From NCBI GenBank assembly GCA_963799675.1, contig CAWCXQ010000003.1:12162-76161 (forward strand): DNA of 64,000 nt, written 5' to 3'. Positions 1-64,000 of the stretch are shown here, piece after piece. Position 1 is the stretch's first letter. The number at the start of each line of letters is the position of its first letter. A program made the position numbers and the translations under genes. Below the pieces are notes generated by a model. That model was not told where the DNA came from. It saw only the letters and a list, made by a program, of their open reading frames with translations, and made no database searches. Origin of the DNA: an uncultured Chloroflexia bacterium (GTDB taxonomy: Bacteria > Chloroflexota > Limnocylindria > QHBO01).

Positions 1-276
1 GTCGCCACTTTCCGCGAGCTGGGTCATGCGGCCGACACAGCCGATCTTGTAGAGTTGCGGTTTGTCGGCTGCGCCGCCGTGCGCAACATCGGGCTGGACC
101 ATGCCGATAAGCCGATGTCCGTCACGCAGCGAGTCATCGACCATCGCGAGATAGCGCGGCTCGAATATATTGAGTGGCATCTGCCCGCGCGGCAACAACA
201 GCGCGCCCGGCAAGGGAAAGACCGGGATGACGCCGGGCATTTCGATCGGTCCACGGTATTGGGCGTTCATCGGCAT
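1..276 (-). CDS. Lon N-terminal (LON substrate-binding) domain protein, N-terminal part only; gene runs off the left edge
   Basis: Own reverse translation from the ATG at 276 (alternative 270): MPMNAQYRGPIEMPGVIPVFPLPGALLLPRGQMPLNIFEPRYLAMVDDSLRDGHRLIGMVQP... This carries the IPxFPL...LPLNIFEPRY signature of Lon-N domain proteins. It is absent from the ORF track because there is no stop inside the window. Confidence 0.6.
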   Translation of the reverse strand, partial: MPMNAQYRGPIEMPGVIPVFPLPGALLLPRGQMPLNIFEPRYLAMVDDSLRDGHRLIGMVQPDVAHGGAADKPQLYKIGCVGRMTQLAESGD

Positions 277-319
277 CTTCGCTTCACTCTCACCTCGGTG
301 CCGTTGCCAGGGCGGACCT

Positions 320-1219
320 CTAGGAGAACAAGATCGAGGACAGGCGTTTCCGCCCTTCGATGGTCGCGGGATCGGTGACGCCCCACGCTTCGAAGAATTG
401 CACGAGTTGTTTGCGCGCGCCGTCGTCGTTCCATTTGCGGTCACGCTTGACGATGTCGATCAGGTGATTAACGGCGTCCTCGCGTTTCCCATTGGCGTTG
501 AGCGCCACGGCAAGATCGAAGCGGGCTTGATGATCGAGCGGATTTGCCCTCACTTTTTCTTCGAGCTCCGCCAGCGGACCGATGGACTTGGCTTGCTCGG
601 CGACATCGAGCGCGGCGCGCGCGGCGGCGACCGCTGCTTCGTTGCGTTTGGCTTCGGGCACGAGCGCGAGCGTCTGCTTGGCCTGCTCGAGCGCGCCCGT
701 TTCGACATAGCATCGCGCGAGCCCCGCGAGCGCGTGGACATTGGCGCCGTCTTCGGCGAGCAATTGCGCATAGAGTTCGGCGGCGCCGGTGGCATTGCCT
801 TCCGCCAGCGCCTGATCGGCGGATTTCAGCAAATCTTTTTCTTCCGCGCCGACCGCGCCTTTGGTGATGCGCTCGAGGAACGCCGCGACCTGGCTCTCCG
901 GCAGAGCGCCCATAAAGCCGTCGACCGGCTGACCGTTGGAAAAGGCAATCACCGCGGGGATCGACTGGATGCCCATCTGGCCGGGGATCGCCGGATGTTC
1001 ATCGATATTCATCTTGGCGAGCTTGACCTTGCCCTTTGCGGCCTTCACGGCCTTTTCCAGGACAGGCGTGAGCTGCTTGCAGGGGCCGCACCAGGGCGCC
1101 CAGAAATCCACCAGCACTGGCTGGTGCTTGGATTCCTCGATCACATCTTTCATGAAGCCTTGTGTGGTCGTGTCCTTGACCACATCGGCCGCCGTCATTG
1201 CCCCGCCGTCCTGCAACAT
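320..1219 (-). CDS. thioredoxin-domain protein with TPR-like C-terminal half (YbbN/CnoX-type co-chaperone)
   Basis: Intact 299-aa ORF. The thioredoxin active site is VLVDFWAPWCGPCKQL, followed by a helical TPR-like tail. An alternative start is M8 at 1198. Confidence 0.85.
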   Translation of the reverse strand: MLQDGGAMTAADVVKDTTTQGFMKDVIEESKHQPVLVDFWAPWCGPCKQLTPVLEKAVKAAKGKVKLAKMNIDEHPAIPGQMGIQSIPAVIAFSNGQPVDGFMGALPESQVAAFLERITKGAVGAEEKDLLKSADQALAEGNATGAAELYAQLLAEDGANVHALAGLARCYVETGALEQAKQTLALVPEAKRNEAAVAAARAALDVAEQAKSIGPLAELEEKVRANPLDHQARFDLAVALNANGKREDAVNHLIDIVKRDRKWNDDGARKQLVQFFEAWGVTDPATIEGRKRLSSILFS

Positions 1220-1307
1220 TTTTCGTCGTCCCTCTCCGCCATCAATGGTCCGAAAACCTAGGCTCGGTGCCGGATTAGATGGGTTATCGGGGAAGGTAAC
1301 GCAATCA

Positions 1308-1826
1308 TCAAGGCATGTTCGAGGCGCGGCCCGAAAGGCGTTCGATTCGCGGCATATGGCCGGTGGATTCGAGGAATTTTACCAGATCGTCGCGCTTTAT
1401 CGACGTCGTCATAATGTTCACAAGCGGATGATAATTCAGCGTTTCGTGCTCCATCATGGCGGCATCGAGCACGACGGTTACGCGGCCTTCGGTGTCGTTG
1501 ATAGCGCCGAAAGGGGTCACCGAACCCGGCTCCACACCCAGCACTTCGCGCATCAAATCGGCCGAACCGAACGAAAATCGTCCGGTGGCGCCGAGCCGCC
1601 GGTGCAGGTCTTTCAGGTCGATCTCGGCGTCTTCAAGTGTAACCACCAGATAGATCGCGTATTTCTTGTCGCGCAGAAAAAGATTCTTGGTATGGCCGCC
1701 CGGAATTTGTCCGCGCAGGCTTCGTGACTGCTCGACCGTGAACAATGGTGGGTGTTTGACCGTGGAATACTTGATGCCAAGGGCATCGAGCGCCACGAAT
1801 AGTTGATCGGGGGTTTTTGACATCAC
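1308..1826 (-). CDS. prolyl-tRNA synthetase-associated (YbaK/ProX-type) aminoacyl-tRNA deacylase domain protein
   Basis: Intact 172-aa ORF: MMSKTPDQLFVALDALGIKYSTVKHPPLFTVEQS...GGHTKNLFLRDKK...VTPFG. This is the typical ProX/YbaK fold sequence. Confidence 0.75.
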   Translation of the reverse strand: MMSKTPDQLFVALDALGIKYSTVKHPPLFTVEQSRSLRGQIPGGHTKNLFLRDKKYAIYLVVTLEDAEIDLKDLHRRLGATGRFSFGSADLMREVLGVEPGSVTPFGAINDTEGRVTVVLDAAMMEHETLNYHPLVNIMTTSIKRDDLVKFLESTGHMPRIERLSGRASNMP

Positions 1827-1882
1827 GCAATAATTGAGGCCGGTTGAGTGTTATTATGACGAGCCAATCAAAGAGGTAAAAG

Positions 1883-2149
1883 ATGACACGCATTTTATTG
1901 ATTGCCGGCGCCGCTATCGCCGCCATGACTTTCTATCCCGCGTCGTTTATTGCCGCACAGGCTGCCGAGGCCCCGTGGTGTGCAGTTATTTCCCTGGGAC
2001 CGGGCGTGGTCTACGAAGATTGCCAATACCGCACATTCGAGGCTTGCCGTCCGGTTGTGCTGTCCGGCAATCGCGGGTTTTGCAATCAAAATCCGCGCTA
2101 CGTCGGTCCGGTGGCGACCAAGCGCGCCAAGCGTCGTGTTCACGACTGA
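1883..2149 (+). CDS. small secreted DUF3551-type protein (4 conserved Cys)
   Basis: 88-aa ORF with RBS aagagg upstream and a signal peptide. It carries PWCAV...EDCQYRTFEACRP...GNRGFCNQNP, the Bradyrhizobiaceae DUF3551 pattern. Confidence 0.7.
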   Translation: MTRILLIAGAAIAAMTFYPASFIAAQAAEAPWCAVISLGPGVVYEDCQYRTFEACRPVVLSGNRGFCNQNPRYVGPVATKRAKRRVHD

Positions 2150-2236
2150 CCGTCCGAACGTTTGCATCCCATAGGCTGGATGTTCGCCGTCCCATCAATG
2201 GCTGCAAAGCCAAGAGTACTCCAAAGGAGGCTTAAT

Positions 2237-2482
2237 ATGTTGCGCCTCGTCCTGATGACCTCCGTGCTCGCCGCAATTGCCTGTGCCAACTTAAGTCCAG
2301 CCCATGCGTCCGAAGGGCCGTGGTGCGCGTTGCGCAATTTTGGCAGCGACCTGTCCGAAGACTGCCAGTTCCGCACCTTTGAAGAGTGCCGGGTCACCGT
2401 GGTTGCGGGATTCCGGGGCTTCTGCAATCCAAATCCACGCTGGCCGGCTGCCGTTGAGCCGCGAAAGCAGCGAAAGGGTTAA
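2237..2482 (+). CDS. small secreted DUF3551-type protein, tandem paralog
   Basis: Part of ORF 2162..2482. The ATG at 2237 is preceded by aaaggagg. Translation: MLRLVLMTSVLAAIACANLSPAHASEGPWCAL...EDCQFRTFEECRV...GFRGFCNPNP. Confidence 0.7.
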   Translation: MLRLVLMTSVLAAIACANLSPAHASEGPWCALRNFGSDLSEDCQFRTFEECRVTVVAGFRGFCNPNPRWPAAVEPRKQRKG

Positions 2483-2580
2483 AACCCGGCCGGTCGTCGT
2501 GGTTGCTTTTAGGCCTGCCTTTTGGCTATAGGAACGGCCTTGGCGGCCGATAATGCTTTTCGGCCAAATATCTAACGGAT

Positions 2581-2655
<75 letters not shown>

Positions 2656-2865
2656 ATACTTAACTCACTTCACCCCAGGCCAGACTGAATCGGCTGCGGT
2701 TGATGGCCGCGGATCGTGGCGCATCGTCGTGACGGCCTGGCCAACGCTTGTCGCCTATTGTGTCACTTTGCGCGCGCGAAATGGCGCTTCGAACGTAGAC
2801 TGGAACAAAGATCGTCAACTCAATTGCGCGGCGCCGATCGGACTGGTCTTGCAGGGGGATGCGAC

Positions 2866-3586
2866 ATGGCCGCAACTTTTGAAACCCGCTTCCGAGATTT
2901 TCAGAAGCAATATGGCGACCCGATCCTGACGGCCCTGACAGTCCTTCTGCTGGTGTTGTTGTTTGTCGTCGCGCCGCTTCTGGCAACCGGACATATCGTT
3001 TTTCAAGTTTTCGGATTTTTGTTGGCGCTGGCGATCATCGCCGGCGCCGTCTTTTTGTCGGGAAGCACAGCCGCATTTATCGCGATGTCAGTTGCGTTTG
3101 GCATGAATATAACGGCGGCCCTGCACAGGCTCAGCAGTCCTTCCGCGCTCGATATTCACCTTGTAGCGGGAGCGTGGTTGATCCTGGCGATCACGCTGGG
3201 CTGGGTGGTCGCTCGCCAGGTCTTCGCGGCGGGACGCGTGACGTATCATCGGATTATCGGCGCGATCCTTTTGTATTTTCTGATTTCGCTGATATTCGTC
3301 GCGTTGTTCGCGATCGTCGGTCAGGCTAATCCCGAAGGCGTTTTCCGGCATTGCGATCGACGACAACACGGCGCTCGCCAGCAACCTGATTTATTTCAGC
3401 TTCGTGACGCTGACCTCAACCGGCTACGGCGATGTGGTGCCGGTGCATCCGATCGCACGCAGCCTTTGCAATCTGGAATCCATCATTGGTCAGCTTTATC
3501 CCGCAATTTTGCTCGCGCGGCTGGTCACGCTGGAAATCGGGGATACGAAACCCGAGCGAAAACGAAAACGGGACAAAGCGCGATGA
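2866..3586 (+). pseudogene. two-TM-type potassium channel (ion transport 2 family), reading frame interrupted once
   Basis: The TM-rich N-part starts at MAATFETRF (ORF 2716..3702). The pore part lies in ORF 3404..3586 with selectivity filter TLTSTGYGD. The two frames join (..ANPEG/AFSGIAIDDNTALASNLIYFSFVTLTSTGYGD) only with a 1-nt shift near 3340. Confidence 0.8.
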
Positions 3587-4877
3587 TCGACATGGACCGT
3601 CTGCAAAGATCCTGGCTCATTTTGACGTTTGCCGCGCTGGCCGTGATTGTTCTGGCGGCCGGCGTCTTCATTGTCGAGACAATGCCGCCCGGACCGTCGT
3701 GATGGCAACCGGCGCGGAGGGTGGCGCCAATTACCAAATGGGCCTCCGTTACCGCGATATCCTGGCGCAATCCGGAGTTAGGTTGCGGCTGGTGCCGACA
3801 ACCGGCGGGCTGGAAAATCTGGCGCGGCTGCGAGATCCCAAATCCGGGGTTGGCGTCGGGTTCATTCAGGGCGGCACAACCACCGAAAAGGAGTCGCCGG
3901 ACATCGAGTCGCTCGGCACCATATTTTACGAGCCGCTGTGGTTTTTCTTCCGGGGTGAAGTTGGCGACGATATCCGCGCGCTCCGCGGTCGACGCATGTC
4001 GATCGGCCCGGAAGGGAGCGGGACACGGGCGCTTGCGCTCGAACTCATAAAAAGTTCAAGCTCGATACCGTTATTGGCGAGATATCGGGGTTTACGCCGC
4101 AGGTGGCCGCCGACAAACTGATTGCGGGCGACATCGACGCCGCATTTATCATAACCGCTGGATCCCCGTCGTCCAGCAGCTCATGGATGCCAAAGGCATC
4201 GCGCTCGCAAGCATCCTGCGCGCGGACGCCTACATCGCACATTATCCCTTTCTGAATAAGCTCGTGCTGCCGGCCGGCGTCAGCGATCTCCTGAACAATC
4301 GTCCGCCGGTCGATATCGTGATGCTGGCGCCGAAGGCGAGCCTCGCCGTGCGCGCGGACCTGCATCCGGCCATCCAGCATTTGTTGCTGACGGCCGCCCA
4401 GCAAATCTCATTCGCAGCCCGGGATTTTCCAGAAAGCCGGGCAATTTCCCGCCGCCGAATCGATCGATCTTCCGCTCAGCGATGAAGCCCAGCGTTTCTA
4501 CAAACGAGGACTGCCATTCCTCCAGAAATATCTTCCGTTCTGGATCGCGACCCTGGTCGAGCGAATGCTCGTCGTGCTCCTGCCTTTGGCAGCCGTGCTG
4601 TATCCGATGTTCAGGTTCCTGCCGCAAATTTACGACTGGGCCATGCAGTCAAAAATCAGGCGTCTGTATGATGAGATGCGGGCGATTGAGAGCGAGATGG
4701 AATTGCAGGAGGGAAAATAACGTCGACGCGATCGATGCAAAGCTTGAAGACCTGGGCCAACGCGCCAATCGGCTGTCGCTGCCGACGTCCTACGCAAGCA
4801 TGGTGTATACGCTGCGCAGCCATATCAATCTCGTCCGCGGCCGTCTGGTATCGGGCGTTCAAAAAAGTCCGCGTTGA
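3583..4877 (+). pseudogene. TAXI-family (COG2358-like) solute-binding protein with N- and C-terminal membrane segments, several frameshifts
   Basis: MIDMDRLQRSWLILTFAALAVIVLAAGVFIV (TM), then VMATGAEGGANYQMGLRYRDILAQSGVRLRLVPTTGGLENLARLRD...FIQGG, the TAXI signature. The pieces are spread over ORFs 2716..3702, 3432..4121, 4183..4485 and 4482..4877. The start ATG overlaps the channel stop (ATGA at 3583-3586). Confidence 0.7.
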
Positions 4878-4974
4878 TTGAGCCGTGATATCACGCTGGA
4901 TTCCGGCCGCCTTTTTCAACCATAATATGACGCCGGGGCTCAACGCCTGCGCAAAACAATCGGGGAACGGAAAC

Positions 4975-5957
4975 ATGACCAAGGCGGTGCTCGCTATTCA
5001 CTTGAAACGCGCGGCCTTTGCTTTTGCATTGGCGATGGCTTTCGTAGCACCCCGACCCGCGGCCGCAGAGGATTATCCCGCGCGCACCATCTCGCTGGTC
5101 GTGGCATTTCCCGCCGGCGGCGGTGTCGACACGGTCGGCCGAGTCGTTGCGCAAAAACTCACCGACGCGCTTGGCCAGCAGGTGATCGTCGTCAATCGTC
5201 CCGGCGCCGGTTCGGTCATCGGCACACGTGACGTCGCCAGAGCGCAGCCCGACGGCTACACGCTGCTTCTGCTGGTCACCGGTGCCGGCCTTCCGGAAGA
5301 ACCCGGTTACGATATGGGCAAGGATTTCGCACCGATCGGCCTGATTGCTTCGGTTCCGATCGTCATCATGTCCAATCCGTCGGTGCCGGCGAAATCACTC
5401 GCCGAAGTGATCGCGCTCGCCAAGAAGGATGGCGACAAAGTCACCGTCGGAACGCCACCGGCGCCGACACTGAATTATTTTGGCGCCGAACAATTCAAGG
5501 CGATGACCGGCACCAAGATTACGATCGTCACCTATAAGGGGACGGGACCGCTCACCAACGATCTCGTCGGTGGTCATGTGATGATCGCGTTCAACACGCT
5601 CCCGCCGGCAATCGGCAATATCCAGGCCGGTACGCTGCGTGCCATTGCCGTCGGCTCACCGGGGCGTATGGCCGCGATCCCCAATGTCCCGACCATCGCC
5701 GAAGCCGGACTGCCGGGCCTCGAGATCGTGCAGTATTACGGCCTCGTCGCACCCGCCGGCACGTCGCAGCCGATCATCGACCGGCTGAACAAGGAGCTGC
5801 GCAAGATCGTGAGTTCGGACGACATGAAAAAGCGCCTGCTCGATGCCGGCGGCGATCCACTGCCAGCACGCCCGCCGAATACGCGCAGAACATCCAGCGC
5901 GAAGAAGGCAAGTGGCAGGCGGTCATCAAGAAGCTCGGGCTGGTGATCAAGAACTGA
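4975..5957 (+). pseudogene. Bug-family tripartite tricarboxylate transporter substrate-binding protein (TctC-like), one frameshift near the 3' end
   Basis: ORF 4885..5946 from MTKAVLAIHL, with a signal peptide, then EDYPARTISLVVAFPAGGGVDTVGR...GYTLLL. The last ~30 aa (..AEYAQNIQREEGKWQAVIKKLGLVIKN-stop at 5957) are recovered after a shift near 5865. Confidence 0.85.
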
Positions 5958-5974
5958 GATAAATCCCGGACACC

Positions 5975-7690
5975 TCAATATCCGGCCGCCAAAGAGCCGC
6001 GCGTCCGTCTGTCGGCGGCACCGACCAGTCCGTCCGGCGTTATTTCAATGGAATTGGCAGACGAGAAAGATTGGAGTCGGCAAAAGTTTGTGGCCGCGCG
6101 CCGTCAACGCGTCGAGCACCTCCGGCGCAAAACCCGGCTCAACATACACTTCTTCCGGTTGCCATTGCTGGTGCAGGCGAGGCGCGCTCACCGCTTCGCC
6201 GATCGGCATATGAAAGTCGATCACATTCACAATGACCTGAAGCACGGTGCTGATAATCCGGCTGCCGCCCGGCGAGCCGGTGATCAGGAATGGCTTGCCG
6301 TCTTTCAGCACAATGGTCGGGGTCATCGACGACAACGGCCGCTTGCCCGGACCCGGCAAATTGGCCGTGTAGCCGATGAGGCCGTACGCATTCGCGGTGC
6401 CGGGCTTGGCGGTGAAATCGTCGAGCTCGTTGTTGAGCAGGACGCCGGTGCCGTCCGCGACAAGGCCGAGACCATAGCGAGAAATTCAGCGTGTAGGTGT
6501 TCGACACGGCATTGCCGTCGCGGTCGATCACCGAAAAATGCGTCGTGTTGCGGCCTTCAAAATCGTCAGGCTTGCCGGGACGAATGTCGGCTGATGGCGT
6601 TGCGCGCTCGCCAATTTCCGAGCGCAAGGAGGCGGCGTAGGCCTTCGATAGCAGGCCGGCAACCGGCATTTTCACGGCGTCAGGGTCGCCCATGAAGGCC
6701 GCACGATCGGCATAAGCGCGCTTCATCGCTTCGATCATGTCATGCAAGGACTGCTCGCGGCTGAGTTTGGCGAGGTCGTATCCTTCGAGGATATTGAGCA
6801 TCTCGATCAGATGCACGCCGCCCGATGAGGGTGGTGGCACGGAGATCACGTCATAGCCGCGATAGCGGCCGCGCACGACCGCGCGTTCGACCGGACGATA
6901 GTTTGCCAGATCGTCTTTGGTGACGATGCCTCCGGCCTTGGTGACGGCGGTGGCAATCTGGTCGGCAGTGCGGCCTTGGTAAAATGCGCGCGGGCCGTCC
7001 TTCGCAATGGCTCGTAAGGTGTCGGCGAGGTCAAACTGGAGCAGCCTCTCACCTTCGCCATAAGGCCGGTCGCCATTGAAGAAAATCGACTTCGTCGCCG
7101 GCCAGCGCGCAAGGCGCTCGCGCGCGAGCGGCAGCAAGTCGGCGGTGTCGTCTTCAACCTGGAATCCGTTCTGCGCGAGATAGATTGCCGGCGCAATCAG
7201 GTCGGCGAGCGTGAATTTTCCCGAGCCGTATTTTTCGTGCGCCATCGCAAGACCGGCGACGGTGCCGGGGATGCCGACCGAGAGCGCGCTGTCGCGCGAC
7301 TTTGCCGGATCCGGCATTTCCCTGCGCGTCGAGAAACATCGTGCTGCTCGCTGCCGCCGGCGCAGTCTCGCGGTAGTCGATTGCGATATCGCGATTGTCC
7401 TTGGCGAGGTGAATCACCATGAAGCCGCCGCCGCCGATATTGCCGGCGCGCGGATAGGTTACCGCGAGCGCGAAGCCCGTCGCGACGGCGGCATCAACCG
7501 CGTTGCCGCCACGATCGAGAATTCCGGTTCCGATGCGGGCAGCGCGTTGTTCCTGAGCCGTCACCACGCCGCTATGCGCGCGGACCGTCTGCGCCGGTGC
7601 AATTGCCGGCGCGCGCGACAGTGGCGCAACTTGCGCGGTGGCGAGCGTGGTGAAGGCGAGGGCAACGATAGCGAGAAAGAATTCGACCAT
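5975..7690 (-). pseudogene. ggt: gamma-glutamyltransferase, three frameshifts
   Basis: Pieces lie in three minus frames. The first is MVEFFLAIVALAF...YPRAGNIGGGGFMVIH. The second is GIPGTVAGLAMAHEKYG...TTHFSVIDRDGNAVSNTYTLN. The third is PGKRPLSSMTPTIVLKDGKPFLITGSPGG. Own translation of the tail gives SANSIEITPDGLVGAADRRTRGSLAAGY-stop at 5975. The shifts are near 6055, 6478 and 7310. Confidence 0.9.
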
Positions 7691-7699
7691 GAACTTTAT

Positions 7700-7790
7700 T
7701 CCGCTCGTCCCCGCGAAAGCAGGGACCCAGTTGCGCCCGGCATAATTGTATAGCTGGATTCCCGCTTTCGCGGGAATGAGCGGCCCAAAG
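7700..7790. repeat. REP/MITE-like intergenic element with two GC-rich hairpins
   Basis: The hairpins are GTCCCCGC-GAAA-GCAGGGAC (7707-7726) and ATTCCCGC-TTTC-GCGGGAAT (7758-7777). Spurious ORFs across it translate as PAKAGIQ / IPAFAGMS / FPRKRESS. These peptides are typical of a dispersed alphaproteobacterial repeat. Confidence 0.6.
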
Positions 7791-7811
7791 GCATGCGGCG
7801 CAAAAGGACCG

Positions 7812-8579
7812 TTACCGCGACTGGCCGTGATAGACCATGTTCGGCCGCATGTCGGTCGCCGACGCCACGCGGTTCGACATGTTGAAGAAGCCCGCAACGG
7901 CCGAAATGTCCCAAATGTCGCGATCGGTGAAGCCAACACGCCGCAGGCGCTCACGGTCGCCTTCTTCAACGCTCCAGGGTGATGCCGTCAGCTTGACCGC
8001 AAAATCCAGCATGGCGCGCTGGCGCTTGTTCAGCCGCGCAACGCGATAGTTCATCACGAGGTGCTCGCCGAGCAGCGGATTGCCGGAATATTGCCGGACT
8101 GCCGCACCATGCGCGGTGAGGCAATAGTAGCAGCGGTTCTGCGACGACACGGCCACCGCGATCATTTCGCGCTCGAGCTTGGAAAGACCAGAGTCGCCAA
8201 GCATCAAGTCATTGTACATGGCGACGAATGTTTCGAGCTTCGCCATGTCGAAGGCATAGGCGGCGAGCACGTTCGGCACGAAGCCGAGCCGGTCCTGGCA
8301 TTTCCGGAAATAGGCCGCCATCGCCGGCGACAATTTCACAGGTTCCAGATTGAGCCCGATCACCGGCACATCGTCGGCCGCCGCCGGCGCCGGCTTGAGC
8401 GGGATCGGCTTTGCGCCGGGCTTGTTGAGCGTCGGTTTGGCCGGGGAGGGTTTGGCCAGCGCTGCTTTCGCGGGCGCTGCTTTGCCGCCTTTGATGGCGT
8501 GCAGCATCGGCTTGTCTTTATTCGGCTTCGCGCTCGCCGCCTTGCCGGCGGTTTTGGCTGATTTATTGGCCTTGGGCAT
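7812..8579 (-). CDS. peroxidase-related AhpD/carboxymuconolactone-decarboxylase-fold protein with Lys/Ala/Pro-rich N-terminal extension
   Basis: ORF 7812..8606. The ATG at 8579 has AAGGGA 7 nt upstream. The C-terminal domain carries the CxxC motif NRCYYCLTAHG. The first ~80 aa are KAP-rich (KSAKTAGKAASAKPNKDK...AAPAKAALAKPSPAKPTLNKPGAKPIPLKPAP). Confidence 0.75.
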   Translation of the reverse strand: MPKANKSAKTAGKAASAKPNKDKPMLHAIKGGKAAPAKAALAKPSPAKPTLNKPGAKPIPLKPAPAAADDVPVIGLNLEPVKLSPAMAAYFRKCQDRLGFVPNVLAAYAFDMAKLETFVAMYNDLMLGDSGLSKLEREMIAVAVSSQNRCYYCLTAHGAAVRQYSGNPLLGEHLVMNYRVARLNKRQRAMLDFAVKLTASPWSVEEGDRERLRRVGFTDRDIWDISAVAGFFNMSNRVASATDMRPNMVYHGQSR

Positions 8580-8859
8580 TTCCCCGTCCCTTAATTCACT
8601 GCTCACCCTGGGCCAGAGTACAATGTTATGCGTCGTCGCGATACGAGCCGCCGGCCGCTCTTTCGCCTTTCATATCAGACAGTTAATGGGCCTAATTGAG
8701 CCGTCTGACGCGCGGATTGTCACCACTGCGTCACCAAATGGTGTGTTGCTCTCGACGCACCTGCGCAGAACGTGAAAACTCCGCATTCGCCTCGACCGAT
8801 TCTCTCTCGCGCATGATCCCGAAATGTGACGAACGGTTTTCGGACGAGGTGCTGCGCCA

Positions 8860-11800
8860 ATGCTAAGCGCACGAGGTTCCATGCCCGTTGAGCTTCCCGC
8901 CAATGAGGAAGACCGCGCCGCTCGCGCCTTGATCGAGCAGGCCGGGAAAGCGCTGAGCCGACGCCGGCCGGAAATTTCCGCAAGCTTTGTCGCGCAACTC
9001 TATGGCCGCTCGGTTCCCGAGGATCTGGTGCGATACGGCGCCGACGATCTCGCGGCGCTGGCCGAGCATGCATATGAATTCACGGCAACGCGGGAACCGG
9101 GCACGTCAAAGGTTCGTTGCGAAACCGTGCCGCTCACAGCGTCCGGCGAGCGCAAGTCGGTCTCGCTGATCGAAATCGTCAACGACGACATGCCGTTCCT
9201 GGTTGATTCCGTGATGGGGGAAATTGCGGATCGTCGTCTCGACGTCCGTCTGGTTGCGCATCCGATTTTCAGCGTGCGTCGCGACGGCAACAAGCTGACG
9301 GCACTCGATGCCCCCGAGGCTGGAGGGAAGCGCGAGAGTTTGATCAGTATTCATCTCGCGCCGATCGCCGACGCTGCGGTGCGCGAAGAACTCGTGCGCG
9401 CGTTGGAAGTCGTTCTCGGCGAGGTGCGGCTGGCGGTGCAGGACTGGCGTGCCATGCGCGACCGCGTCGGCGGCATCGTGACCGAACTGAAGACCAATCC
9501 GCCGCCGTTGCCTGTTGACGAAATTGCCGAGGCGATCCAGTTCCTGCAATGGCTGCTGGCCGACAATTTCACGTTCCTCGGGGTGCGCGATTACACCGTC
9601 GACGGACAGGCGCTTGAGCCGGAGTTCGACAGTGCGCTCGGCATCATGCGCTCGCGCGAACTGCGCGTGCTCCGGCGCGGCACGGAGCTTCTCGAGTTTA
9701 CGCCGGAAATCATGGCGTTTCTGAAGGAGCCGCGGCCGCTGATCGTTGCCAAGGCCAATATCCATGCCCGCGTGCACCGGCGCGTCTATCTCGATTACAT
9801 CGGCGTGAAGCGTTTTGATGCGTCGGGCAATCTGGTCGGGGAACACCGCATCATCGGATTGTTCACGTCCACCGCCTATACGCGCACCGCGCACAGCATT
9901 CCGTATTTGCGCCGCAAGATCGCCGCGGTGGAGGAGCGCGCCGGATTCGATCCGAGCACGCATTCCGGCAAGGCGCTGGCCAATGTGCTGGAGCACTATC
10001 CGCGCGACGAGCTGTTTCAGATCGACGAAGACACGCTCTACAACTTCGCGCTCGCGATTCTTCAGCTCGACGAGCGGCCGCGCGTGCGCGTGCTGGCCCG
10101 GCGTGACCGCTTCGATCGCTTCGTGTCGGTTCTGGTGTACGTGCCGCGCGAACGATACGACAGCCACATCCGCGTCAAGATCGGTACATACCTCGCACGA
10201 GCATTCATCGGGCGGGTTTCGGCATTCTACCCGTATTTTCCTGATGAAGGCCCGCTGGTGCGCGTGCACTTCATTATCGGCCGCTCAGGCGGCGCAACGC
10301 CCGCGATCGACCGCAGCGTGCTGGAGAACGAAGTCGAGTCAATCATCCGCACGTGGGGCGACGGATTGAACCAGGCGTTGGCGCTGGCCAACTCACCGGA
10401 CAAGGCGCGCGCGCTCTTCGGCCGTTACCGGGACGCATTCTCCGACGGTTTCCGGGAAGCCTATGCGCCGGCGGTTGCCGCCAGTGACATCCGCGTCATT
10501 GAAGGGCTGTCCGAACAGCGGCCGCTCGGTGTCGACTTTCTTCACCGTCTCGAGGAAGACCAGCGGTCGGCCGGCCTGAAGGTGTGGAGTTTCGCGCGCC
10601 CGTTGCCGCTTTCCGAGCGCGTTCCGGTGCTGGAAAACATGGGTTTCCGCGTGGTGGACGAACGGACCTACCACATCGAGCCGCAGGGCAGCGCCGGCGT
10701 CTGGTTCCACGACATGTTGCTTGAGCGCGCCGATGGCGGCGTGATCGCGCTCGACGAGGGCAAGTCACTGCTGGAAACCGCCTTCCTGATGGTGATGAGG
10801 GGTGCGGCCGAGAACGATGGTTACAATGCACTCACGCTGCAGGGCGACCTCGCCTGGCGGGATGTTGCGCTGATCCGCACGCTATCGCGGTTCTTGCGGC
10901 AGATTCGCGTACCTTTTTCGCAGGATTACATGTGGTCGACGCTGGTCAAGCACGCCGGCATTGCTGCCGATATCGTCGACCTGTTCCACGCCCGCTTCGA
11001 TCCGCGCGCGGATGCCGGCCGGAACGAAAAACAGAGCGCGATCGGCGCGCAGATCGAAGAGAAATTGCAGGCGGTTGAAAGTCTGGACGAGGATCGAATC
11101 CTCCGCCGCTTTATCAACGCTGTTCAGTCTGCGATCCGCACAAATTACTACCAGATCGACAAAGACGGTCAGCCGAAGCCGCTGATCTCGATCAAGTTCG
11201 AAAGCCGCAAGCTCACAGACTTGCCGCTGCCGCGGCCGCTCTATGAAATTTTTGTCTATTCGCCGCGCGTGGAAGGCGTGCATATGCGCTTCGGCAAGGT
11301 CGCGCGCGGCGGCATCCGCTGGTCCGACCGTCCGCAGGATTTCCGCACCGAGATTCTTGGGCTGGTAAAGGCGCAGCAGGTCAAGAACGCAGTGATCGTG
11401 CCGGTCGGCGCCAAAGGCGGCTTTGTGCCGAAGCTGATGCCAAAGGGTGCGACACGCGAAATCGTGCAGGCCGAAGGCATCGCGACCTACAAGCTGTTCA
11501 TCTCGTCGCTGCTCGACATAACCGACAACATAGCTCCGGACGGCGCGATTATTCCGCCCGCCGATGTCGTTCGCCACGAAGGCAACGATCCCTATCTGGT
11601 CGTTGCCGCCGACAAAGGCACCGCAACTTTTTCCGATATCGCCAATTCGATTTCGGTCGAACACGACTACTGGCTTGATGATGCCTTCGCATCGGGCGGA
11701 TCGGCCGGCTACGACCACAAAGCGATGGGCATCACCGCGCGCGGCGCGTGGGAATCCGTCAAACGTCATTTCCGCGAGATGGACGTCAATATCGGCACGA

Positions 11801-13690
11801 CGCCGTTCAACGTGGTTGGCGTCGGCGACATGTCGGGCGACGTTTTCGGCAACGGGATGTTGCGCGAGGATACGATCCGGCTGCTGGCCGCGTTCGACCA
11901 TCGCGATATTTTTATCGACCCGGATCCCGATCCGAAAGCGAGCTTTGCCGAGCGCAAGCGCATGTTCGCGCTGCCGCGATCGAGCTGGCAGGACTATGAC
12001 AAAGGACTGATTTCCAAAGGCGGCGGCGTCTACCCGCGCGCGTCAAAGGAAATCCGGTTGAGCGCCGAAGCGCGCAAGCTGTTCGGCGTCGCGGAGGCCG
12101 TGACGCCACAGGAGTTGATGAAGGCCATCCTGAAGGCAAAAGTCGACCTTTTGTTCTTCGGCGGCATCGGAACCTACATTCGCGCGTCGAATGAAGGCGA
12201 TGAGGCGGCAGGCGACCGTGCCAATGATTCAATTCGCATCACCGGCGCAGATCTCAATTGCAAGGTGATCGGCGAGGGCGCCAATCTCGGCATGACCCAG
12301 CGTGGGCGCATCGAGGCGGCCCAGCACGGCATCCGGCTCAACACCGATGCCATCGACAATTCCGCCGGCGTCAATACCTCCGACGTCGAGGTCAACATCA
12401 AGATCGCGCTCAGCGGGCCCGTGCGCTCGGGCGCGCTGGCAGTCGATGCGCGCAATGTGTTCCTCGCGGAAATGACCGATGAAGTCGCGCGGCTGGTTTT
12501 GCGCAACAATTATCAGCAGACGCTGGCGCTCTCGATGGCGCAGCGCCGCGGCCTCGAAGATCTCGGCTTTCAGCAGAGACTGATGCAGACACTTGAAGTG
12601 CGTGGGGAGCTTGATCGCGGCGTGGAGTTTTTGCCGGACGAGATGGCGATTGCCGAGCGGCGCAAGCGCAATGCCGGCCTGACGCGGCCCGAGCTTGCGG
12701 TGTTGCTCGCTTATGCCAAGCTCTCGCTCTACAACGAATTGCTCGACAGCAAGATGCCCGACGATCCCTACCTCGGCCGCGAACTGGGTCGTTATTTTCC
12801 CAAGGAAATGTCGGAGCGTTACGCCGATGCGCTGCATACCCACCGGCTGCGGCGCGAGATCATTGCGACCCAGCTGACGAATTCGATGATCAACCGCGGC
12901 GGCGCCACGTTGATTGTCCGCATTGCGGACCAGACCGGGGCCGCGCCGCCGTGCGATCGCGGCCGCCTTTGCGGCGGTTCGCAACAGCTATGATCTCATT
13001 GGCCTCAATGGCGAAATCGACGCGCTCGACAACAAAATCGCCGGCAAGGTGCAGCTCGATCTTTACACCGCGGTGCAGGACCTGCTGCTCGACCGGCTGG
13101 TCTGGTTCCTGCGCAATGTGGACCTGACCCAGGGTCTCGAGAAGATTATCGGCCATTACCGCGAGGGAATTACGCAGGTCACGGCAGCGCTCGATGGCGC
13201 GCTTTCGAAGTCCGCCGCTGCTGCCCGTGAAACGCGGGGCGGCGAGCTCGCCAAGGCGGGCGTTCCCGAAGCGCTCGCGCGTCAAATGGCGAGCCTGCCG
13301 GTGTTGAAGGCCGCGCCTGACATCGTTCTGGTGGCGGATCGTGCCGGCAAGCCCGTCAATGAGGTGACCGCGACCTATTTCGCAACCGAAGCCTTCTTCC
13401 AGCTGGACCAGGTTGCCAGCGCGGTGCCGACTATCGTGGTGTCGGATTATTTCGACCGGCTGGCACTCGATCGCGCCCTCGACTCCATCGGCGATGCCGA
13501 GCGGCGGCTGACGGCAGCCATGGTCGGAAACGGCCACGCGGGGGCGGGCGCGGTGGAAGAATGGGTTCGCCCAAGACAGGCCGAGGTCGAGCGGATCCGC
13601 TCGGCGATCCACCAGATTGCCGGGTCGGGGCTTACGCTGTCGAAGCTGTCGGTTGCGGCGAGCCTGCTGGGCGATCTGGCAAGGCAGTAG
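8860..13690 (+). pseudogene. large NAD-specific glutamate dehydrogenase (~1610 aa), one frameshift
   Basis: The 1377-aa ORF 8860..12993 continues in ORF 12914..13690 after a shift near 12950. The size and the core GGIRWSDRPQDFRTEILGLVKAQQVKNAVIVPVGAKGGF fit the GdhZ/GdhB-type large GDH family. Confidence 0.9.
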
Positions 13691-13698
13691 TTCGCCCG

Positions 13699-15292: not shown

Positions 15293-15373
15293 GATGCACG
15301 AGCTAGCATATCAAGCGGGCCAAAGTGTATTCGCGAATGCGGCTCCCGAGCGGGGCATCCACAAGCATCGATC

Positions 15374-47585: not shown

Positions 47586-47613
47586 CGGGCCGGCATCCTA
47601 ACCGAAGCAAATG

Positions 47614-47642: not shown

Positions 47643-47650
47643 GCTAGAAT
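47643..47650 (+). promoter_or_regulatory. candidate extended -10 element (TGcTAGAAT) for dnaJ
   Basis: TGCTAGAAT ends 9 nt before the ATG at 47660, which would give a leaderless or near-leaderless mRNA. No clear -35 is present, because CIRCE occupies that position. Confidence 0.35.
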
Positions 47651-47659
47651 CCCGCCCCG

Positions 47660-52782: not shown

Positions 52783-53334
52783 ATGACTATCCGAGCAGAT
52801 CTGAGCGGAGAGGCGGACAACCTGAACGCCATCGTGGCGGATCAGGCCGCCTTCCGAGTGTGGTACGAGCTCGCGCTGCCGCGCGTGTATCGATACCTGC
52901 TGGCCCGCTGTGGAGGTGACTCGGATCTCGCGGAGGAGCTGACGCAGCAGACCTTCGTTGAAGCCGTGCGACGACGGGCGAGCTTCGACGGCCGCTCCGA
53001 CGCGGTCACCTGGCTGTGTGGCATCGGCCGCCACAAGCTGATCGACCACTACCGTCGGGCCGGACGAGACAGCCAGCGTCAGCTCCGCATCGTCTCCGAG
53101 TGGTCCGCCGGACAGTCCCAAGCGTGGTCGCAGCACGCGCTGCAGTCCGGCGTGCAGTCGGCGCTGGCCGAGCTTCACGGCGAGCAGCGGATCGTGATGG
53201 TCCTTCGATACCTCGACCAGATGCCGGTCCGCGAGATCGCCACCACCATCGGTCGCTCCGAGAAGGCGACCGAGTCACTCCTCTCTCGAGCACGCGAAGC
53301 CTTCCGTAAGGCATACGGAGCCACTAACTCATGA
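52783..53334 (+). CDS. ECF RNA polymerase sigma factor
   Basis: Intact, 183 aa from MTIRADLSG inside ORF 52348..53334. Region 2 reads ..LAEELTQQTFVEAVRRRASF...TWLCGIGRHKLIDHYR.. Region 4 reads ..EQRIVMVLRYLDQMPVREIATTIGRSEKATESLLSRAREAF.. Confidence 0.85.
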   Translation: MTIRADLSGEADNLNAIVADQAAFRVWYELALPRVYRYLLARCGGDSDLAEELTQQTFVEAVRRRASFDGRSDAVTWLCGIGRHKLIDHYRRAGRDSQRQLRIVSEWSAGQSQAWSQHALQSGVQSALAELHGEQRIVMVLRYLDQMPVREIATTIGRSEKATESLLSRAREAFRKAYGATNS

Positions 53335-54804
53335 ACGACGACGAGCTGACCCGCATCTTCCGCTCGCTCGACGAGCCGGCCGAACCGCGTACGGCCTTCG
53401 CCGATACCCTCTTCGCCGACCTCGAGCGCATGACCTCCCGGGCCGTGGCTCGCCGGCAGTCGGTCGGATGGCTGCTTCTTGCCGCCACCCTGCTGCTCGT
53501 CGCGAGTTTGGGTGCCGCGCTGGCGGTCGGCAGCGGCCTCGTCAAGCTGCCATTCGTCGTGGCAGTCGCCTCTCCGACCCCGCTCGCCAAGCGCCTCGAC
53601 CGTGGAGAGCGTCACCCCCTCCCCCAGCGCGACCGGATCATCCACCCCGACCTCCTGTCAGCCACGCCTGCGCCGACGCCGAGCCCGGTCAGCGTGGCGA
53701 TGTCGAGCAGCGCCACGTTCAGCCTGCTGCCGACGGCTCAGCCCGCTGACTTCGTGTCTCACATCAGCTGCAACGGGTCGATCGGGCCTTCGGATCCCGT
53801 CGCGCTCGTTTACCTGCACGGGACGCCGGGTGTGGCGCTGCGTGACTACGCTGACCCCGGGAGCCCAAGGACTGCATGTACCGTCGGGGACTCCATCGCG
53901 CAGCTCATCGACATCGCGCAGCTGATCGACGCCCGCCACGTGGTGATCCGAGGCAACGGCCCTGTTTTCGCGGTGGTCGACCTTCCCGAGGTGCGGTACC
54001 ACTGGTTTGCGCTGCCACAGGAAGATTGTCCCAAAGGCATTCGCCTTCCCTGCCCAGCTGGCTCCCGCGCGGAGTTCCTCGCCGTCGCCCCGGGCCTCGA
54101 TCAGATCGCTTGGGAGAGCTCGAACACTGTCGGCGCGGAAAGAAAAGTACATCTCACCACGGCCGCTGGAGATCAGGTCGTCGCTGCGCTGCCGTCCATT
54201 ACCGGCGGCCGGTGTGGTGGTCCGGACGACTCCCAGCAAGCGGCGTACACCCATTCCGGGGCTGACCTCTACGTTCTCGATCAGGTGAACCATTCGCAGA
54301 ACGTCCTACTCGTGCTGGAAGGGACGAAACAGGTGCTCTCAATCGCGCCGCCTCCCGGCGCGCCTGGCCGCTGGGCGGCCACCCGGCCATGGCCGTTTGG
54401 TCGCCGGTCTCGGAGACTCTCTTCTACCGCCAGGACAGCGACATCTGGAAGTGGACGCCGGGCTCGGACCCTCAGCGCTATCTCCCCGGCGTTGCTTGGT
54501 TGTACCCGACCATCACCCCGGACGGAGGCCACCTCGCCTACGCGGTGCCGGCTCCCAATAGCGGGCACGACGTCTACCTCGTCGACCTCGCCCACGATGG
54601 GAGCCCTCAACTGATCGGTAAGGCTCGCAACCTGCCGGTCTTCCTGAACTCCAGCCAGCTCTGGTTCAAGTCGGAAGTCCAAAGGGGTGTCTGGGCCAGG
54701 CGGCAAAGCCGCTCGTCTACGACATCAATGACGGTTCCGAATCGCCCAGCATCATCGACTTGGTCCGCAACGTCTGGCCCGCCACCAGTTCGCAGAACTA
54801 CTGA
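53331..54804 (+). pseudogene. single-TM anti-sigma-like protein with TolB/PD40-like beta-propeller C-terminal region, frameshifted
   Basis: There is an ATGA overlap with the sigma gene. After MNDDELTRIFRSLDEP comes the TM VGWLLLAATLLLVASLGAALAV. The C-terminal pieces read ..MAVWSPVSETLFYRQDSDIWKWTPG...ITPDGGHLAYAVPAPNSGHDVYLVDL.. (ORF 54389..). Own translation of the tail gives ..LVYDINDGSESPSIIDLVRNVWPATSSQNY-stop at 54804. Confidence 0.6.
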
Positions 54805-59444: not shown

Positions 59445-60681
59445 CTAGAGCTGGTAGGCAATTTCGCCGTGCTGGGCCATGTCGAGCCCGGCCTCCTCGG
59501 CCGCGCTCGGGACCCGGATCCGCACTGCGGCGTTGACGACGAGCAGGATCAGCGCGGTCGCCCCGGCCGAGTAGACCGCGACGGCAACCACCGCCAGCGC
59601 CTGGACGGCGAGCTGCCCGAGATTCCCGGCGAGCGCTCCATCGTGGCCCGCCGCGTTGACGGCGACCGTGGCGAAGACGCCCGTCGCCAACGCGCCCAAC
59701 GCGCCACCCACGCCGTGGACGGCGAAGACGTCGAGCGCGTCGTCGACGCGGGACCTGATGCGCAGCTGCGCGGCGCCATAGCAGACCACCGCCACGCCGC
59801 CACCGATCAGGATCGCCCGACAGGCGTGACAAAGCCGGCTGCCGGGGTGATCGCCACCAGGCCGGCGACTGCTCCGGCCGCCGCGCCGAGCACGCTCGGC
59901 GGGCCCTTGTGCAGCCAGCGTGACCGTCATCCAGGTGAGCGCGGCCATCGCGGCGGCGGTGTTCGTGGTCACGAAGGCGATGGCCGCAAGCCCGTTCGCG
60001 GCCAGCGCGCTAGCCGGCGTTGAAGCCGAACCAGCCGAACCAGAGCAGCGCCGGCGCCCAGCACGGTCATGGTGGCGTCGTGCGGCTCCATCGGCTCTCG
60101 CCGAAGGCCGATGCGGCGGCCGAGCATGAGCGCGGCGACCAGCGCCGAGATGCCGACTTGATAGTGGACCACCGTGCCGCCGGCGAAGTCGAGCGCGCCG
60201 AGCCCGTAGCAGCCAGCCGTCCGGCGCCCCAGACCCAGTGCGCGATCGGGTCGTAGACCAGCGTCGCCCAGAGCAGGCTGAAGAGCACGAACGCCTTGAA
60301 GCGCTTGCGCTCGGCGAAGGCGCCGGTGATGAGCGCCGGCGTGATGATGGCGAACATCATCTGGAAGGCCATGAACGCGTAGTGCGGGATCGTCGGCGCG
60401 TAGATCGGGCTCGGTGCAGCGGCCGACCCCTTCAGGCCGATCCAGTCGAGGCCGCCGATGATCCCCAGCCCTGTATCAGGGCCGAAGGCCAGGATATAGC
60501 CCCACAGCACCCACTGACGCTGATCAGCGCCAGGATGAAGAAGCTGTGCATGATCGTCGAGAGAACGTTCTTGCGGCGAACCAGGCCGCCGTAGAAGAAG
60601 GCCGAGCCCCGGCGTCATCAGCATCACGAGCGCGGTCGAGACGAGCATCCAGGCGGTATCGCCGGCGTTGATCTCGGGCAT
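59445..60681 (-). pseudogene. amt: ammonium transporter, several frameshifts
   Basis: The pieces read MPEINAGDTAWMLVSTALVMLMTPGL.., ..[53 protein letters not shown].. (ORF 60067..60681), and ..DDALDVFAVHGVGGALGALATGVFA...AEEAGLDMAQHGEIAYQL-stop (ORF 59445..59972). Confidence 0.85.
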
Positions 60682-60773
60682 CGAGTCCCCTCAGCGGCTG
60701 TGTTGTGCGATCAGCCTATGAACCGATACGTCTCGAGTGCGAGGGGGTCGGGTCGTCTGATGCACGCGACTGT

Positions 60774-62045: not shown

Positions 62046-62402
62046 ACAAGAGACGCTCAGGAAGGGCGAAAGCGGGTGAGTCGCGTTTGTAGTGGCGAAG
62101 ACGAAGTTGGCAGATTTCACCACCACGAGAGTTACGCGAAGGTCAAGCCTCTGCGCTCGGCGTGCGGCCGGCAGGCCGAGCGTGGGTAACGAGAGAACCT
62201 GCCGATTCGACGCCGCGGAATGGTCTACGTTAGCTACCACTGAAATTTGGCGACGAACGGGCTAAAGACCGCGGATAACGGCGCAGCGCGCTGAAGTCTG
62301 ACGAGACACGCTCCTGCCACGCAGGCGCGAAGGAGCCCCAGACGTCGGCCACCTTTCGGCAGCCGGCGCCCAGGGCGCCGAGTCGATCGAGCGGCGGTCT
62401 GG

Positions 62403-63312
62403 CTAGCGGTTCTCGGGACGATCGAGGAGCTTGAACGTCCCGGCCAGCGACAGGGCGAGGATGATCAGCAGAGCGCCGACGAGGAGCGGAGTCGAGCCGA
62501 ATGGCTCGGCCACCAGCAGGTTCGACATGCTCGTGTCGGGGATCCCCGGGACGCCGGGGCCGCTTGGCGTCGTCGGCGTCGAGCCGGTCGGCGTCACGCT
62601 GACCGGTCCGAGGGGGGTCGCAGTCGTCGTACCGGGAGTGGTACCGGGAACGATCGCGTTGTTGGTCATGCTGGCCGAGCAGATCACCAGGGCTCCGCCA
62701 CCGTTGGCCGAGCCGTTGCACTGGTTGATCCTCACCGCGAGGCCAGACGTCTTCGTGCCGCTGGCGGTGCAGGTCAGCCCAACCAGGGTTCCACCGTTCG
62801 CGGACCCATTGCACTGGGTGATGCTCGCGCCAGTCGTGGTCGCTGGAAAGGGGTCGCAGCCGGTCGTGATCCCGCCGCCCGAGCCGACGCACTGGTTCGT
62901 GGTCGCCGCGGTCGCGGCCGGCCCGGAGCCGACGAAGTTGTTCGTGACGCGGACGCTGCATCGGAGCGTGCCGCCCCCGCCGTTGATCGCGCTGTTGCAT
63001 TGGGTGACCGCGGTGACCGGCGCGGTCAGGATCGAGGTCTTCACCGAGCAGGAGGCCTCGGGATCGCCCGCCGCGCCATGGCACTCGCGGACGGTGACCG
63101 TGGCGGTGCCGCCGACGGCGTTGATGGTGTTGACGACGGTGACCTCGCAGATCAGGCCAAGGCCGCCGGTGTTATCGACGCCGTTGCTGCACGTGGTGGT
63201 CGGCGCAATCACCGTCGCCGCGGACGCCGGCGCGGCAGTGATCAGCGACGCGCGACACGATCAGCGCGAAGGCAAACAGGCCGGAAAGGAGCAGGGTAAA
63301 CGGGCGACGCAT
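62403..63312 (-). pseudogene. secreted Cys-rich repeat protein with Thr/Pro linker and C-terminal membrane anchor, one frameshift in the signal-peptide region
   Basis: ORF 62403..63212, plus own translation upstream giving MRRPFTLLLSGLFAFALIV.. from the ATG at 63312 (shift near 63245). It has six disulfide-loop-like modules with 12 Cys, for example TQCNGSANGGTLVGLTCTAS and NQCNGSANGGGALVICSASMTNN. A TP-rich linker follows, then ..AEPFGSTPLLVGALLIILALSLAGTFKLLDRPENR. Confidence 0.6.
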
Positions 63313-63437
63313 TGCGACACCTGTAAGGGTCGAGCGTCGTTGCCAATGGATTCAGCGGCGGAGCCCGTGCTGGCACTATGCGAGCGCATGCGTCCGAAAA
63401 CAACCCGGACCATCAGCTCGCTCGCTTCGCGTCGGCG

Positions 63438-64000
63438 TCAGCTGGCCACGGCCCGTGACACGCTCAGCTCGGCTGGGAGGACAGGCCGCCCGCCGAGCAT
63501 CCGGTCGGCGATGATGCGTGCGGAGGCCGGCCCAGTGGAGATTCCCCACGGCCCATGGCCTGCGCAGATGAAGAGCCCATCGATCCCTGCCACGGGACCC
63601 ATGAACGGCCGGCCATCGATCGACTGTGGTCGCGCGCAGATCCGCCGCTCGAGGACCTCAGCGGACCGTATCCCCGGAAGGAATGCCCCGGCGCGATCGA
63701 CAAGCAACGCGGCGACGGGCACGGGCTCCGGCTCGGCGGGCAGGAAGGTCGAGCCGAGGCTGCTCACCCCATCGGCGCTGGCGAGGCTGAAGAGCGACGG
63801 TGGCTCACCTTCGGCCGAGGCGGCTGCGCGGGCTGTGGCGGCCGCCGGGCGGTTGACGGCATCGACCTCATCCTCCTCGACGACGTGGCGCGGCGAATCC
63901 GCCAGCCGCAGCTGAAGCGTCACGCCCCAGGTCGGGCGGATCGGCTCCCAGGCGCCGGTCGCGTCGACCAGCTGCGGGCTCCACGGGCCCGCGGCCACGA
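63438..64000 (-). CDS. FAD-dependent oxidoreductase (DAO/glycine-oxidase-like), C-terminal part; gene continues past the right edge
   Basis: ORF 63438..63998: ..RICARPQSIDGRPFMGPVAGIDGLFICAGHGPWGISTGPASARIIADRMLG.., a typical DAO-family C-terminus. The frame stays open to the window end. Confidence 0.6.
   Translation of the reverse strand, partial: VAAGPWSPQLVDATGAWEPIRPTWGVTLQLRLADSPRHVVEEDEVDAVNRPAAATARAAASAEGEPPSLFSLASADGVSSLGSTFLPAEPEPVPVAALLVDRAGAFLPGIRSAEVLERRICARPQSIDGRPFMGPVAGIDGLFICAGHGPWGISTGPASARIIADRMLGGRPVLPAELSVSRAVAS

Follow-up and report, generated by a model that had tools for sequence, protein, structure and literature searches.

The window, the whole 64,000-nucleotide stretch of contig C3 analyzed here, holds genes of two different bacteria. 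Positions 1-44623 belong to a Pseudolabrys-like alphaproteobacterium (Xanthobacteraceae in the record names, and not Bradyrhizobiaceae as the first-pass annotation had supposed) and positions 44624-64000 to Ca. Limnocylindria (Chloroflexota), the taxonomic affinity changing abruptly at a junction (44618..44629) with its breakpoint at 44623/44624. At least one frameshifting indel is present in 36 of the 64 genes (56%), as judged from sister-assembly gene calls and Pfam fragment matches, a recount that bears out the earlier figure of 39 broken genes among 62. For 1-44623, the gene calls of a sister contig (G021:C8; ENA ERZ25039543 contig_31236) were projected onto its pairwise alignment with the window, and indels with a length that is not a multiple of 3 were found in 29 of 40 genes, or 28 of 40 once an error of G021 itself (window ~1503), which accounts for one affected gene, had been removed. 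The reference G021 is itself a metagenome-assembled genome (MAG) broken in the glutamate dehydrogenase gene, hemY and one small gene, and counts against it hold to within ±1 or 2. For 44624-64000, a gene was taken to be broken where successive fragments in different frames match successive parts of one Pfam model; mscL, xthA, an AlkZ-like gene, dnaJ, prmA, rsmE and amt are flagged in this way, a tblastn chain adds the gene at 53328-54670, and the count stands at 8 broken genes out of 24, with 2 uncertain. The longest open frame per gene proved useless for telling intact genes from broken ones, since even wrong frames remain open at 65-70% G+C, and frames deduced from third-position polymorphism alone gave 13 shadow calls, because one antisense frame shares its third positions with the sense frame, and were replaced by the public G021 gene calls.

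The first segment of the alphaproteobacterial part (1..25600) is 98-99% identical to G021:C8, and 9 of its 21 genes are broken. On the plus strand, one frameshifting indel interrupts an Ion_trans_2 gene (2866..3586), five an NMT1_3 gene for a TAXI-type binding protein (3583..4877) and one, close to the 3' end, a tctC-family gene (4885..5957), while ggt on the minus strand (5975..7690) has three. The gene for the large NAD-glutamate dehydrogenase (8881..13690, plus strand) holds a window-private insertion at 12951, the break at 13214 being G021's own error. A single insertion was found in each of four minus-strand genes, namely purH (13699..15292, at 14613), rsmB (17235..18591, at 17296, ~20 codons upstream of the stop), ykuD, which encodes an L,D-transpeptidase (18735..19251, at 19034), and an EVE-domain gene (21930..22347, at 22281). 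The ykuD case had been presented in the first-pass annotation as resolved, with an extra T at ~19031; a window-private 1-bp insertion is indeed present, at 19034, but the extra base is the C or G in GA[CG]TT and not a T, since the relatives also have TT there.

The segment that follows (25601..44200) is ~90% identical to G021 and to every other relative, and hence represents a lineage not sampled elsewhere; all 19 genes between 25.6 and 44.6 kb are broken. Its plus-strand genes begin with hemD (25616..26329, 8 frameshifting indels), a Mitofilin-like gene (26402..27624, 17) and hemY (27632..29215, 17; also split once in G021), followed by three hypothetical genes of 252, 244 and 47 aa in G021 (29583..30342, 30394..31131 and 31266..31408, with 1, 7 and 1, respectively) and an MFS transporter gene (31512..32771, 13). 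An adenylosuccinate-lyase-family gene on the minus strand (32786..34133) has one indel near its 3' end and is otherwise clean at 5% divergence from G021. Then come a ridA-family gene (34272..34724, 5) and a peptidase M24 gene (34788..35900, 6) on the plus strand, and on the minus strand an FrsA-like hydrolase gene (35961..37029, 7), two ABC permease genes (37056..38632, 16 and 5), the genes for an ABC substrate-binding protein (NMT1) and an ATPase (38724..40610, 5 and 6, respectively) and a further hypothetical gene (40607..41214, 201 aa in G021, 2). The plus-strand genes cpaB and cpaC (41763..44217) carry 3 and 16 frameshifting indels, and a small gene of the Tad locus (44201..44561, plus strand, 119 aa in G021) carries one.

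In the Limnocylindria part, mscL (45132..45504, minus strand) occupies two frames, positions 1-55 and 65-118 of the MscL model lying on separate fragments, and xthA (Exo_endo_phos; 45544..46336, plus strand) occupies three, with model positions 1-88, 107-168 and 177-225. The AlkZ-like glycosylase gene (46344..47594, minus strand) is in four fragments with three switches. In dnaJ (47648..48776, plus strand), the J domain and the remainder are in different frames, with one G too many in a run of G at ~47886, and the window's own DnaJ call is a protein of 263 aa without a J domain; the 120 DnaJ relatives among the matches listed all measure 263-397 aa and nearly all have the domain. Also on the plus strand, prmA (48786..49689) shows a deletion at ~49281 and an insertion at ~49398, rsmE (49683..50361) one switch at ~50193, and an unnamed gene that follows an ECF sigma factor gene (53328..54670) one switch at ~54338; amt (59448..60690, minus strand) is spread over three frames, with model positions 47-136, 144-197 and 267-399. 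Some of the Limnocylindria indels sit in short runs of one base. No near-identical independent assembly of this part was found, the best DnaJ relative among the matches listed being 91% identical, and base-exact polarization is therefore confined to the alphaproteobacterial part; nucleotide alignment to the Limnocylindria relatives, at 70-85% identity, placed only a few events.

The genes acs, pgpH and the heparinase-like gene, which had been described as intact, are so, and the damage is clustered, as had also been claimed. Indel density is ~0.9 per kb over 1-25.5 kb and 5-18 per kb over 25.6-44.2 kb, and the Limnocylindria part has ~0.7 frame switches per kb; the further claim, of an equal density in both halves, thus holds only approximately. 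The halves are unrelated, as had been stated, in that they are two organisms on one contig, which is probably a misassembly. Across the genome, frame switches were found in 69 of 220 conserved genes (31%), on 9 contigs, at a rate of 0.48 per kb, the reciprocal control giving 0.055 per kb. The orthologues concerned include LeuRS, TrpRS, DnaK, CarB, FabF and a DnaE-type polymerase, and coding segments have a median length of 468 nt, where a clean relative has 846 nt; rpoB and rpoC, also sought as test genes, were not found in the bin. These rates come from reference-based chains, which replaced a reference-free count of same-strand junctions between codon-usage segments; the latter gave 0.34 per kb in a clean control, because ordinary gene boundaries in operons look like frame switches.

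The spectrum of the indels was resolved in a five-way alignment, spanning 24.5-44.6 kb, of the window with its relatives G021-G024. Private 1-bp indels number 125 in the window (97 insertions and 28 deletions) and 2-6 in each relative. With all lengths counted, 111 insertions and 39 deletions are private to the window, compared with 4-16 of each kind in each relative, and the length of only 5 of these 150 is divisible by 3; in the pairwise alignment, 151 of 196 indels measure 1 bp. The 98-99% identical sister has 3 private indels over 1-23 kb, where the window has 22 (13 1-bp insertions and 9 deletions). Insertions outnumber deletions by ~2.5 to 1 both in the alphaproteobacterial part (111:39) and in Limnocylindria genome-wide (75:31). 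The sequence context of the indels, which the first-pass annotation had proposed to tabulate, lies mostly outside homopolymers and so departs from the classical Nanopore signature: an identical base adjoins 19 of the 97 insertions and 15 of the 28 deletions, leaving ~80% of insertions outside such runs. The allele of an adjacent polymorphic site is repeated by 40 (41%) of the 1-bp insertions, compared with 14% in a control, which suggests, at the level of sequence, a consensus drawn from mixed strains at low depth. Indels are also denser where the sequence has diverged further from the abundant sister strain (Spearman 0.73). The interval 33.0-34.0 kb is free of indels despite 5% divergence, and such near-clean genes within a bad stretch mean that read depth or strain mixture would have to vary locally.

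At the junction, the match to six alphaproteobacterial relatives ends 44 nt inside cpaE; of five Limnocylindria relatives, four begin to match here, at about codon 515 of dnaK. Affinity switches at this one point, and the continuations of both partners are located elsewhere: G021 runs on past it into cpaE-cpaF-tadBC, and contig C9 of the bin, which overlaps C3 at 90.8% identity, supplies the absent 5' part of dnaK. With two organisms joined inside dnaK, the head of the contig looks chimeric, and the join at 44623/44624 is probably a misassembly, by which the first 56.8 kb of C3 (window 1-44623) would have been attached as Pseudolabrys-like DNA. If the 57-kb block were instead truly integrated in the Limnocylindria chromosome by inter-phylum transfer, some of the indels could be real decay of foreign DNA. 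Such a transfer would have cut a host dnaK whose remainder is on another contig; only one junction exists, because the block sits at the contig end; the substitutions of the block are under purifying selection; and indels of the same kind occur in the host's own essential genes. On these grounds, we regard the transfer as extremely improbable.

Real and recent mass pseudogenization (genome decay affecting one organism or both) would be in keeping with indels that exist in the deposited sequence and are clustered, and that could resemble decaying islands. Decay should bring nonsense mutations and relaxed selection and spare essential genes, a pattern that was not found. Mismatches to G021 fall at third codon positions in 71-77% of cases, 66% of the 1,575 differing codons are synonymous (26% expected under random placement), and the three nonsense changes, all doubtful, compare with 21 ± 4 expected; the affected genes thus look functional apart from their indels, with purifying selection and essentially no substitution-made premature stops, even where up to 17 indels fall in one gene of 1.2 kb. 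The indels are moreover private to one assembly, they affect aminoacyl-tRNA synthetase genes, dnaK, carB and fabF elsewhere in the genome, and the insertion bias is identical in two unrelated organisms, all of which makes decay very unlikely. A mixture, with errors making up most of the indels and a minority being real strain-level indels or pseudogenes of the rare Pseudolabrys-like lineage (25.6-44.2 kb), has in its favor that this lineage is unsampled elsewhere, and that the private indels of the four relatives include some real ones, mostly intergenic. However, in each relative the private 1-bp events of the same 20 kb are limited to 1-6 insertions and 0-2 deletions, and therefore no more than a few of the 125 in the window would be real; we consider the mixture unlikely. 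The conserved residues still encoded in the downstream frame after each shift might also be read as a sign that programmed ribosomal frameshifting, transcriptional slippage or unusual decoding restores the proteins. Instead of one conserved slippery site per gene, common to relatives, we found shifts in both directions (+1 and -1), up to 17 of them within a gene, with no shared motif seen at the sites, most insertions outside one-base runs, and all relatives uninterrupted at the same positions, so that recoding has a practically negligible probability.

We conclude that the frameshifts are very likely errors of the deposited consensus and not features of living genomes, as the first-pass annotation had proposed; the privacy of the indels, their length of mostly 1 bp, the purifying selection, the essential single-copy genes hit elsewhere in the genome and the profile common to two organisms all support this reading. 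As consensus errors on a misjoined contig, they are almost certainly a problem of data quality and not biology. The source genome would be a Ca. Limnocylindria bin assembled from a long-read metagenome, in which thin or multi-strain read support may have led the consensus step to add or drop single bases, each error shifting the frame. The cause is probably low or mixed read depth, and a large share of the insertions may have arisen where both alleles of a polymorphic site were written in tandem. The closest relatives are Nanopore MAGs of the Microflora Danica project, built with metaFlye and one round of Medaka (PMC12313526), although their link to the present genome is indirect.

The genome belongs to a GTDB-based collection that keeps one genome per species. 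It contains ~57 kb from another phylum, and a frame is broken roughly once in every 2 kb of conserved coding sequence. Truncation is frequent among its predicted proteins, as with the DnaJ called without a J domain, and the marker-based completeness of 65% is in part an artefact, produced by broken genes, and in part reflects genuine absence, as of rpoB and rpoC. Any report of lost genes, pseudogenes, unusual domain architectures or transfer between phyla that rests on this genome needs to be checked against reads.

Among known systems, the nearest are the residual indel errors of long-read assemblies and MAGs of the Nanopore type, as exposed by the full-length-protein test IDEEL, which is said to have been first described by Watson and Warr in 2019. 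Frameshift errors in Nanopore consensus sequences are documented especially below ~40-fold coverage (PMC9262707), and the present case shares with them 1-base indels that split conserved genes throughout the genome, hit essential genes and leave short gene calls, in a type of damage that worsens at low coverage. In contrast to the homopolymer deletions of the classical signature, insertions prevail here and lie largely outside one-base runs. Consensus errors from collapsed co-occurring strains, or microdiversity, have been discussed for soil MAGs (PMC12313526), and the features shared with these are an indel density that tracks divergence from the sister strain, the tandem both-allele insertions and the diverged overlap of C9 and C3. 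The literature searched yielded no published description of this tandem signature, which was deduced from the relatives. Finally, as in other chimeric contigs of metagenome bins, a fragment of another phylum, here of ~57 kb, lies at the end of a contig and is where indels are densest; what sets the present example apart is that its junction cuts through dnaK, the 5' part of which is preserved on C9.

The window (G000:C3:12162-76161) carries the DNA of two organisms, as indicated by its relationships. Its G+C content climbs rightward, from about 60-65% to about 69%; the genome bin under study (G000; 2.57 Mb in 19 contigs, marker completeness 64.9%) has 69% G+C. The large glutamate dehydrogenase, used as a query, led to metagenome-assembled genomes of Pseudolabrys-like alphaproteobacteria, the best being the 918-kb contig G021:C8 (contig_31236 of MFD05513.bin.1.202, ENA ERZ25039543), with which the head of C3 (C3:1-56784) is collinear. 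The match to all six alphaproteobacterial genomes ends at window 44622-44623, 44 nt into cpaE. From 44624, which lies at about codon 515 of dnaK, the DNA runs collinear with relatives from the bin's own family, and Ca. Limnocylindria is the name borne by the DnaJ relatives of this right part. The remaining 5' part of dnaK lies on contig C9 (G000:C9:1-1714), which shares an ungapped overlap of 90.8% identity with C3:56779-57039 and carries on the synteny of G006, a two-contig relative of the bin. Given the break in affinity at 44623/44624 and the rest of dnaK on C9, the two unrelated genomic halves described in the first-pass annotation are indeed unrelated, but they belong to two organisms and not to one genome, and the junction between the cpaE end and the dnaK start (window 44618-44629, C3:56784/56785) is a probable misassembly.

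Frame changes on the same strand were already numerous in a codon-usage scan of the window. For the alphaproteobacterial part, publicly available gene calls of G021, with their Pfam hits, were projected via pairwise alignment, a gene being counted as broken if it held an indel of a length not a multiple of three; such indels affect 29 of 40 genes, one being an error of G021 itself, which leaves 28 broken in the window (9 of the 21 genes in 1-25.6 kb, and all 19 in 25.6-44.6 kb). In the Limnocylindria part, where events are placed only to within a few bases, 8 of 24 genes are broken and two are uncertain: fragments of mscL, xthA, dnaJ, prmA, rsmE and amt, all earlier read as disrupted, and of an AlkZ-like gene lie in differing frames and match successive stretches of one Pfam model, and tblastn chains added one split gene. 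The intact genes here are the dnaK tail, HIT, SnoaL, two ECF sigma factor genes, the gene adjoining one of them (60820-61506), a cysteine-rich repeat gene (62.4-63.3 kb), rpsU, yqeY, pgpH, ybeY, GNAT, DinB and a partial DAO gene. A 388-aa open frame at 51088-52254 contains Sigma-70 region 2 only, region 4 being absent; an undetected frameshift may have joined an ECF sigma factor gene to the adjoining gene here. Altogether 36 of 64 genes (56%) are broken, per-gene counts being possibly off by one or two owing to G021's own breaks, which is close to the 39 of 62 first reconstructed by hand. The projection also confirmed the disruption of purH, hemD, rsmB, the large glutamate dehydrogenase, ggt, cpaB and cpaC, and acs, pgpH and the heparinase-like gene proved intact as initially read; the supposed five ABC transporter genes are all broken, but comprise four ABC genes and one TAXI-type binding protein.

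In a five-way alignment with the alphaproteobacterial relatives G021-G024 across 24.5-44.6 kb, 111 insertions and 39 deletions are private to the window (private meaning present in one assembly only), 97 and 28 of them, respectively, being 1 bp long; in each relative, private 1-bp events amount to 1-6 insertions and 0-2 deletions. Across 1-23 kb, at 98-99% identity, private indels number 22 in the window vs. 3 in the sister contig. The latter has single-base breaks itself, at window equivalents 1503, 2178 and 13214 and in hemY, leaving the glutamate dehydrogenase tail as a separate 134-aa gene, hemY as 132 + 396 aa and a 172-aa gene cut to 66 aa; at 1503 and 13214 the intact copy is that of the window and the broken one that of G021:C8. 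Mismatches to G021 fall at third codon positions in 71-77% of cases, and 66% of the 1,575 differing codons (among 13,380 comparable) are synonymous, vs. 26% expected with the same base changes placed at random. Stop-creating changes number 3 vs. 21 +/- 4 expected, two lying in a stretch misframed in G021 itself and one adjoining indels. These figures agree with the earlier statement that the broken genes show no decay; the substitutions are real divergence under selection, a history with which the indels are out of keeping.

When proteins from 400 kb of G006 were compared with the bin, frame switches appeared in 69 of the 220 with an orthologue-like match; the switches total 105 over 217 kb and fall on nine contigs, vs. 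14 in 255 kb in the reciprocal control. The broken orthologues include DnaK, TrpRS, FabF, GlgC, transketolase, CarB, LeuRS (three switches) and a DnaE-type polymerase. Net switches in the bin are +1 in 75 cases and -1 in 31, a bias shared with the alphaproteobacterial part, and since the error profile is common to two phyla, it is a property of the assembly. Neither rpoB (TIGR02013) nor rpoC (TIGR02386) was found anywhere in the bin, and its low completeness is therefore partly real absence, beyond broken genes.

The first-pass annotation had proposed tabulating the indels by homopolymer context; across 24.5-44.6 kb most insertions turned out to lie outside runs, with only 19 of the 97 1-bp insertions adjoining an identical base and 75 inserting C or G, a pattern that is not the classical homopolymer problem. 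Short runs do host a few Limnocylindria events. Forty of the 97 (41%) copy the relatives' allele at an adjacent polymorphic site, vs. 14% at control positions; at 26479, for example, the window has CG, G021 has C and the other relatives have G. Such alleles in tandem might serve as a diagnostic mark of a consensus into which strains were collapsed. The density of indels goes with divergence from G021 (Spearman 0.73), and the head is a mosaic in its identity to G021, which is 98-99% as far as 25.5 kb, about 90% at 25.6-44.2 kb (the same distance as G021 from G022) and 98.5-100% in the final 400 bases, with steps at 25500-25700 and 44200-44620. The mosaic reflects either a second assembly join, of two Pseudolabrys-like populations, or real recombination. 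A divergent patch at 2000-5000 (4-7% mismatch to G021), in an otherwise 99% identical segment, spans the Ion_trans_2 and NMT1_3 genes and holds 10 of that segment's indels. An adenylosuccinate-lyase-family gene at 33000-34000 has no indel over 1 kb despite 5% divergence from G021 and lies within the most error-rich stretch, so error density is patchy at the 1-kb scale.

The frameshifts in the window are almost certainly an artefact and not biology, a judgement made from sequence comparison; the original attribution to consensus indel errors is supported by the private indels, the selected substitutions, the genome-wide spread and the profile common to both phyla. Few reads and/or mixed strains may lie behind the consensus, which would sometimes write both alleles of a site in succession. 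The nearest relatives belong to the Microflora Danica Nanopore catalogue, whose assemblies were produced with metaFlye and a single round of Medaka (PMC12313526), and frameshift errors are documented in Nanopore-type data below about 40-fold coverage (PMC9262707). The present case resembles Nanopore consensus errors in its frameshifts, but differs in that these are mostly non-homopolymer insertions.
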